64,000 bases of DNA from Octopus vulgaris (taxonomy: Eukaryota), in NCBI GenBank assembly GCA_951406725.2, contig OX597819.1, forward strand, positions 49,166,001-49,230,000, read 5' to 3'. The translations under genes and the position numbers were made by a program. The notes under the pieces were generated by a model that was given only the letters and a program-made list of their open reading frames with translations, searched no databases and was not told the DNA's origin. Position 1 is the stretch's first letter; every line of letters starts with the position of its first letter. Positions 53,967 to 54,487 of the stretch are shown here, one piece after another.

Positions 53967-53993
<27 letters not shown>

Positions 53994-54028
53994 GCAAAAG
54001 TAATATGTGACAATTATTCGGTAGCCAT

Positions 54029-54089
54029 GATAAAACTCCAAGTTTTGGATGACGAGGTGGAAATCCATGCCACCATCTCTTCAGTTATC
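54029..54089 (-). ncRNA. Hammerhead-like motif in the inverted left arm
   Basis: Minus strand reads GATAA-CTGAAGA-GATGGTG...CGTCATC-C-AAAA-CTTGGAG-TT-TTATC. Confidence 0.55.
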
Positions 54090-54100
54090 CAACCATCAGA

Positions 54101-54258
54101 TGTAGCATCTGTTCTTATCAGCTTAATATCTGATACGGTCCCTATTTGGGACCATCGATATTAAACTGATTTTTAGAATGAGGCGAAGAGTTAGGGGCTT
54201 GCTCTGCCTTTGCTATGGGTTGGCCTGGTATAGCAGTACTTCCAGGATTCCGCCCACC
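54101..54258 (+). pseudogene. U2: U2 snRNA copy lacking the first ~31 nt
   Basis: TGTAGCATCTGTTCTTATCAGCTTAATATCTGATACG matches U2 from nt ~32 (canonical TGTAGTATCTGTTCTTATCAGTTTAATATCTGATACG). Also present: stem IIb GGTCCC-tattt-GGGACC, Sm-like GATTTTTAG, stem III loop GGGGCTTGCTCT, stem IV CCTGG-TATAGCAGTACTT-CCAGG. Branch-point pairing GTAGTA is changed to GTAGCA and loop IV TTGCAG to TAGCAG. Confidence 0.93.
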
Positions 54259-54284
54259 ATAATGAGGCATTTTTCCGATGGCCA

Positions 54285-54345
54285 GATAACTGAAGAAATG
54301 GCGGCATGGATTTCCATCTCGGCATCCAAAACTCGGAGTTTTATC
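54285..54345 (+). ncRNA. Type I hammerhead-ribozyme-like motif (GAAA core reads AAAA)
   Basis: GATAA-CTGAAGA-[helix II ...TGGATTTCCA...CATCC]-AAAA-CTC-G-GAG-TT-TTATC. Helix I is GATAA/TTATC, the core is CUGANGA, helix III is minimal, and the cleavage triplet is GUU. Confidence 0.6.
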
Positions 54346-54487
54346 ATGGCTACTGAATAATTGTCACATATTACATTTACAGATAAATTCCTCTCTTTCT
54401 TTCTTTTGTTGTCTTACCATTTATACCAATATATATATAAATATATATAAATATATATTGTATTATATTTTATAGACATGTATATAT

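Follow-up and report, generated by a model that had tools for sequence, protein, structure and literature searches.

How a piece of U2 small nuclear RNA (snRNA) came to lie between two inverted, hammerhead-bearing arms, and whether the unit so formed moves as a family of its own, is the question raised by this locus of Octopus vulgaris. An earlier note on the same DNA had offered two answers, namely a template switch of a Penelope reverse transcriptase (RT) onto U2 RNA, or a family that sits just 3' of U2 genes and is transcribed as U2-ribozyme read-through RNA. Both are weighed here using the window, by which is meant the whole 64,000-nt stretch that was analysed, together with loci fetched from the genome.

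Organization of the locus

The features of the locus are collected in Table 1. The two arms, already described as inverted, are 88% complementary over 115 nt (53986-54100 with 54274-54388) and stand head-to-head, with the U2 piece filling the gap between them in sense with the right arm. Measured against the family copy L034, the left arm is identical at 97 of 107 nt and the right arm at 112 of 118 nt (54267-54384). Both arms are real, but their starts have moved. The left arm, formerly placed from 53989, begins at about 53993, the first bases assigned to it being TA repeat, and its 5' end falls ~7 nt short of the 5' breakpoint that recurs in the family. The right arm starts at 54267 rather than 54274, and what had been taken for a 15-nt spacer resolves into seven bases (54259-54265), an extra G (54266) and seven bases that belong to the element. 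The position 54267 is, moreover, the putative transcript start of the Penelope-like element (PLE) family to which the arms belong. The tail of ~45 nt described for the right arm is indeed confined to it, although 21 internal nucleotides are missing relative to L034; longer copies of the family continue past it into 5' UTR and open reading frame (ORF).

The surroundings of the insertion are as first described, with (TA)n on both sides, no poly(A) and no target-site duplication (TSD) beyond the TA repeat, which is the only sequence common to both flanks. The proposed ATCA microhomology between arm and U2 does not withstand comparison: the family has G where the motif ends in A (54098), a change of CpG type, and the motif lies 2 nt from U2 nt 33 where U2 itself has 3. 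The arms do not stand out by folding z-score (-1.1 to +1.6). Elsewhere in the window, another inverted pair (52656-52815 and 52957-53116; 160 nt, 79%, 141 nt apart) is a common interspersed repeat.

Table 1. Features of the U2-containing insertion, in window positions
Feature	Position	Strand	Basis or remark
(TA)n target, left side	53983-53992	.	Sequence, and TA repeats beside other arm ends of the family
Left arm: inverted, tail-less 3' end of Hydra-clade PLE pseudo-LTR	53993-54100	-	
Type I hammerhead motif, left arm	54023-54094	-	G12 to A at 54046; would-be cleavage base 54034
U2 snRNA retrocopy, 5'-truncated, nt 33-190	54101-54258	+	Rfam and the genome's U2 genes
Seven bases matching neither U2-gene flank nor element	54259-54265	+	Comparison with both
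Extra G at the recurrent arm 5' breakpoint	54266	+	G precedes 22 of 35 arms broken there
Right arm: PLE pseudo-LTR 3' end, from recurrent breakpoint to first 3' end site	54267-54381	+	
Type I hammerhead motif, right arm	54280-54351	+	Core 54290-54296; would-be cleavage base 54340
PLE tail, right arm only	54382-54429	+	21-nt internal deletion relative to L034
(TA)n target, right side	54430-54489	.	

Identity of the arms

The arms are the hammerhead-bearing pseudo-LTR end of a PLE, and motifs and by-eye comparison place this element in the Hydra clade. A 27-mer of the arm has 292 exact matches in the genome, 251 preceded by A and 41 by another base (control, 0), and in L053 and further loci a PLE ORF begins in the sequence past the tail. 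In L109, L110 and L112 the arm is linked to an ORF for RT and a C-terminal endonuclease of GIY-YIG type, the motifs being read by eye against Hydra-1_Obim. L109 (G000:C3:174091500-174098000, about 838-4054) is a near-full-length, decayed PLE of ~3.2 kb, with pseudo-LTR parts at both ends, a decayed ORF and a long 3' region rich in simple repeats. As Hydra-clade diagnostics, PMC8557442 gives RWK, a change of DKG to DKT, and C-terminal CxxC and CxH. The ORF of L109 carries RWK, a CxCX5C linker, a GIY-YIG-like core without cysteines and a terminal CxH, its CxxC having one cysteine, while DKG is changed to DKT in L074 and to NKT in L109. Further Hydra diagnostics of L109 lie at positions 2748 and 2804-2867, in a single decayed copy, and long blocks in common with the Hydra-1_Obim sequence of the PMC8557442 supplement can be followed by eye. 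Pfam does not recognise the decayed ORF, and its neighbours in the protein atlas are mostly unnamed, with a weak RVT_1 lead in 13% of members. With Pfam silent, the clade call is a motif-based one. The (TA)n target, the inverted partner and the tail on one end, all Hydra-type traits, are likewise present in the arm family.

A reading of the ORF as Neptune was dropped once the Hydra diagnostics fitted. Terminal inverted repeats (TIRs) of a DNA transposon or MITE, which the earlier note had set against a Penelope pseudo-LTR, were also rejected: the arms vary in length, lie head to head and continue into the RT ORF. In L225 (upstream of the arm, inverted) and L038 (downstream), a different hammerhead-like repeat with a CTGAAGA core adjoins the arm, and is possibly a second PLE family joined to the Hydra PLE family.

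Hammerhead motifs

The examined set comprised 125 distinct arms: the non-A class in full (41 arms), together with 84 arms out of 251 in the A class. A type I hammerhead descriptor matches 64 of the 125 on the sense strand, with no match in reverse orientation or among 5000 shuffled sequences. A type I hammerhead architecture is thereby upheld for the arm family, but both arms of the locus fail the descriptor, the left one matching only with GAAA relaxed to AAAA. G12, which has a catalytic role in the hammerhead, is A in both of them (54328 and 54046), and a further G-to-A change, at 54297, has cost the right arm the first pair of stem II; with these changes, both hammerheads of the locus are probably dead. 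The Rfam hammerhead models, proposed earlier as a check, yield nothing for the window and nothing for an intact copy, even with E allowed to reach 10. The motif was instead established by the descriptor and by comparison with published Hydra motifs; the family layout, including stem III, agrees with the Hydra hammerheads of File S2 of PMC8557442. In the intact copy the hammerhead fold (-23.2 kcal/mol) lies 2.8 above the minimum (-26.0 kcal/mol). Within the family, G-to-A changes at 54306 and at 54328 tend to be found together (8/82, p=4e-4); both arms of the locus have the two changes, which may reflect either a shared source RNA or plain CpG ageing.

Two-armed insertions and a recurrent breakpoint

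The two-armed, head-to-head, one-tailed mini-insertion is the usual form of the family. Of the 84 short arms, whose cut lies no more than 30 nt from the GCATTTTT site, 70 have an inverted partner upstream and 14 have none, an insertion with both arms sampled counting twice. The partnered arms are joined within 15 nt in 49 cases, enclose the element's own sequence in 13 and hold other filler in 8; one arm carries a tail in 58, neither in 12 and both in 0. By eye, long foreign filler is found in two of the eight, namely the U2 piece of the window and a 204-nt piece in L079, which looks like part of a different interspersed repeat and has no Rfam match. The same two arm ends that enclose U2 in the window are joined directly in L034, over a common GA. 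A second two-armed copy in the window (~46456-46651), also in (TA)n, has its tail on the left arm, a gap of ~11 nt and no U2. Inverted two-armed structures are described for PLEs generally (PMC8557442; PMC4209133).

At two end sites, TA repeat follows 61 of 84 family arm ends. The 3' ends of the arms pile up at reference positions 122 (22 arms), 186 (36) and 142 (24), the last of which probably arises where private changes in the reference copy interrupt the alignment. A recount of the arms by motif gave 41 with tail, 41 without and 43 unclassified.

The 5' ends cluster in a 16-nt stretch: in 35 of the 41 arms of the non-A class the break falls exactly in front of GCATTTTT, in a sample whose search pattern demanded intact GCATTTTT and left breaks downstream of it outside. 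Immediately before the break stands G in 22 of those 35 arms, T in 9 and C in 4, whereas G makes up 25% of the nearby non-A bases (p=2e-6). Of the 84 sampled A-class arms, 40 break within 16 nt upstream of GCATTTTT, and a second cluster lies near GGTCATTTT. Two insertions, L104/L105 and L220/L221, have a single start site for both of their arms, each arm with the extra G, and part of the PLE's own ORF lies in between. The arms of these two pairs and of L214, L222, L224 and L230 all begin at either of two fixed positions, the extra G being present in most; the filler of the latter four consists of fragments from the 5' ORF region of the element itself. From other retroelements, an extra G is known as the signature of a copied cap. 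The breakpoints are accordingly open to being read as capped RNA 5' ends, with the G as the copied cap, a reading drawn from genomic junctions. In the two PLEs characterised, the transcript start lies inside the pseudo-LTR (PMC8557442).

The U2 segment and its origin in RNA

U2 is the one RNA family found by Rfam in the 64-kb window (RF00004, 54075-54262, 127 bits, E 2e-25). Judged by the genome's own U2 genes, its true extent is 54101-54258, nt 33-190, in keeping with the earlier assignment of nt ~32 to the 3' end. The copy differs from the gene copy L004 at six positions, three of them CpG transitions, and one substitution falls at nt 38, inside GUAGUA, the branch-point-pairing motif of U2. 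The copy ends at the mature 3' end without gene flank, the same stop as in other U2 retrocopies, and was therefore derived from RNA.

For comparison, 29 other U2 loci were fetched from the genome. Of these, 24 are full-length with a common gene 3' flank, five are 5'-truncated and joined to repeat 3' tails, and no PLE arm is present at any of the 29, the 24 intact genes included. A family situated 3' of U2 genes is refuted by this count. The bases called spacer, which the earlier note had suggested comparing with the 3' flanks of U2 genes, do not match such flanks; as they are not U2-gene sequence, the read-through model is removed.

Independent 5'-truncated U2 retrocopies (L207-L212, L005, L021, L022, L028, L029) are fused to the tails of other high-copy repeats. 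Their junctions lie at or just past the U2 3' end, and the tails are short repeat 3' tails; one such pattern has six exact matches genome-wide with differing junctions (control, 0), and L021 carries a second tail type. These truncated chimeras of U2 and repeat tail are SINEU-like raw material. Intact U2 genes form a tandem array with a period of ~1.75 kb (L007-L012, L019; G000:C23:43.30-43.33 Mb), and many more are dispersed, with at least two types of upstream flank.

Uniqueness of the U2-arm junctions

The earlier note had held that many loci with the same U2-arm junction would support a family, and a unique junction a one-off capture. Among the scored candidates (40 of 3842, and 40 of 941), no further match of U2 with an arm was found. 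Whole-genome scans with exact patterns, which can miss diverged copies, returned the window locus alone for the left junction, and for the right junction the window locus and one further match, L145 (control, 3 matches). L145 is a lone U2 fragment and was rejected as a second U2-plus-arm copy. Both U2 and arm are held by 6 of the 232 loci fetched, and all six are the window locus. Rfam finds no RNA family in 40 other family loci, hand-picked for odd upstream sequence from 195 arm-bearing loci, some of them duplicates. As both junctions were found once, a one-off capture rather than a system is indicated by the note's own criterion, and the locus is a real structure that represents a single event and not a family. 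Without a U2 promoter and with decayed hammerheads, its product is most likely an inert fossil.

Proposed mechanism and rival explanations

Of the two original answers it is the template switch of a Penelope RT onto U2 RNA that is supported, since the arms are the pseudo-LTR end of a PLE and connect with an ORF for RT and endonuclease, and the U2 piece has RNA ends. The proposed event, to which a probability of about 0.8 is assigned, is a single abortive insertion of a Hydra-clade PLE into (TA)n, with the RT jumping onto U2 snRNA meanwhile. The endonuclease would nick both strands of (TA)n, and the RT would prime twice on the element RNA at two internal sites, the tail end and the tail start. 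The right cDNA would copy tail and hammerhead up to the capped 5' end, with the cap copied as G, after which the RT would add seven untemplated bases (54259-54265), jump to the U2 3' end and run back to nt 33. The left cDNA would stop ~7 nt before the breakpoint, not quite reaching the RNA 5' end, and would then be joined to the right cDNA without clear microhomology. An anole PLE protein has been described to cut both strands of AT-rich DNA and, in vitro, to begin cDNA synthesis at two neighbouring internal sites, one at each boundary of the tail (PMC11167929). Jumping between templates after untemplated addition was demonstrated for the R2 RT (PMC8857657), and may be extended to the PLE RT by analogy with that other enzyme. 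For head-to-head structures, PMC3846280 offers antisense self-priming instead.

The U2 cDNA might alternatively have entered later, between the arms of an existing insertion, either by way of the RT of another retroelement or as filler at a break in a hairpin-prone palindrome. Other retroelements do capture U2 repeatedly in this genome, as the five truncated loci with repeat 3' tails and the six chimeras with different junctions matching one pattern attest, and the GA shared by the arm ends of L034 could be read as a 2-nt duplication at the window locus; arms joined in this manner leave room for a later insertion of U2. However, the other U2 chimeras all bring a tail of their own, whereas the U2 piece of the window has no tail, no poly(A) and no repeat longer than 3 nt around it. 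U2 and right arm are, furthermore, about equally decayed (6/158 and 6/118), and the gap between the arms is routinely filled during the PLE family's own insertions. Later entry is thus regarded as unlikely. That the unit is an assembly chimera of two repeats is very improbable: it is built of repeats and known from the assembly alone, but private substitutions are found in the U2 copy and in each arm, and the junction coincides with the biological breakpoint of the family, extra G included.

There is hardly any chance that the window locus is one copy of a U2-driven, ribozyme-processed, non-autonomous family. U2 does lie in sense with the right-arm hammerhead, and U2-headed SINEs of the SINEU type exist (PMC4494074); against this stand the solitary junctions and the Rfam survey reported above, the missing U2 5' end and gene flanks, and the core changes in both hammerheads. 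A retrotransposon of the Utopia or Keno kind, inserted into a U2 gene, can be set aside almost completely. The lead arose from the nearness of the U2 break (nt 33) to the known target site of these elements, yet their U2 flank is reported to begin at nt 39, after the element 3' end, in Utopia and in Keno alike (PMC4640811), whereas here nt 33 meets the 5' ends of the arms. The insertion ends of the element face (TA)n rather than U2, no U2-gene flank is left, and no arm lies near any of the 24 intact U2 genes fetched. Capture of U2 during PLE insertion is retained as the preferred explanation, and the locus is most likely a real, single and inert U2 capture by a Hydra-clade PLE, i.e. a footprint of element copying rather than a new mobile family.

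Comparison with known systems

Hydra-1_Obim, as given in PMC8557442, is the nearest known element, alike in its ORF motifs, in a hammerhead near the 3' end, and in the core and stem III layout of that hammerhead. The arm family is nonetheless distinct, its hammerhead stems differing from those given for Hydra-1_Obim, and its tail of ~64 nt exceeds the 30-40 nt described for PLEs (PMC8557442). The window copy further differs from Hydra-1_Obim in having no ORF and in carrying U2. With Hydra-clade PLEs as described in the same source, the locus shares the (TA)n target, the inverted, 5'-truncated partner and the tail on one end (PMC8557442). The hammerhead pairs of Schistosoma PLEs, on opposite strands and 100-700 bp apart, resemble the window pair (PMC4209133; bioRxiv 10.64898/2026.07.22.740005). 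A non-LTR retrozyme was rejected, since the locus holds two inverted, mutated motifs and no tandem hammerhead units (bioRxiv 10.64898/2026.07.22.740005).

Template-switch chimeras of snRNA and LINE, e.g. U6/L1, are likewise independent one-off events with the snRNA in sense and 5' of the retroelement 3' end (PMC4476161; PMC4494074), and the U2 piece is placed in just this way and stops at an RNA end without gene flank. In contrast to U6/L1, as these sources present it, the partner here is a PLE and the switch lies at a fixed breakpoint of the element; an inverted second arm closes the 5' side, and neither poly(A) nor TSD is present. In Adineta vaga, foreign sequence is similarly framed by Penelope pseudo-LTRs, some of them inverted, in a single insertion, but the cargo described is an intron-bearing gene or unspecified non-coding DNA with TSDs, whereas that of the window is a mature snRNA with an RNA-defined 3' end (PMC3846280). 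SINEU elements also have U2-derived sequence 5' of a retroelement end, probably through a template switch, but their families were amplified from master copies, whereas the window unit was found once (PMC4494074). By analogy, the window locus would work like a template-switch chimera of the U6/L1 type while resembling host capture between Penelope pseudo-LTRs.

Significance

Chimeras with snRNA are already known for LINEs, and host capture for PLEs. No PLE-snRNA chimera is evident from titles or the first lines of abstracts in the literature covered, from which subscription papers are largely absent. As an object the locus is minor, being one decayed pseudogene chimera, and its value is mechanistic. 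PMC8557442 counts among the open problems how tandem and inverted pseudo-LTR structures of PLEs are formed, and the in vitro PLE study leaves the later steps unvalidated (PMC11167929). Together, the clustered breakpoints with their extra G, the fillers of own RNA and the capture of U2 yield a specific and testable account, from run-off at a capped start to template jump. Tentatively, and at slightly less than even odds, this account may extend to the Hydra PLE RT in general, which would prime twice near the RNA 5' end, run off the capped start with the cap copied as G, and jump end-to-end to whatever RNA is at hand; jumps onto the element's own RNA would be the usual case and would build pseudo-LTRs and inverted structures, while now and then the acceptor would be a host RNA such as U2. 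Such a step of the Penelope cycle would be an undescribed one. It is the breakpoint signature across the family that is the part worth following. If the account is true, the U2 locus would prove cleanly, from within a genome, that the jump is made onto RNA, and snRNA-headed chimeras could arise by way of PLEs.
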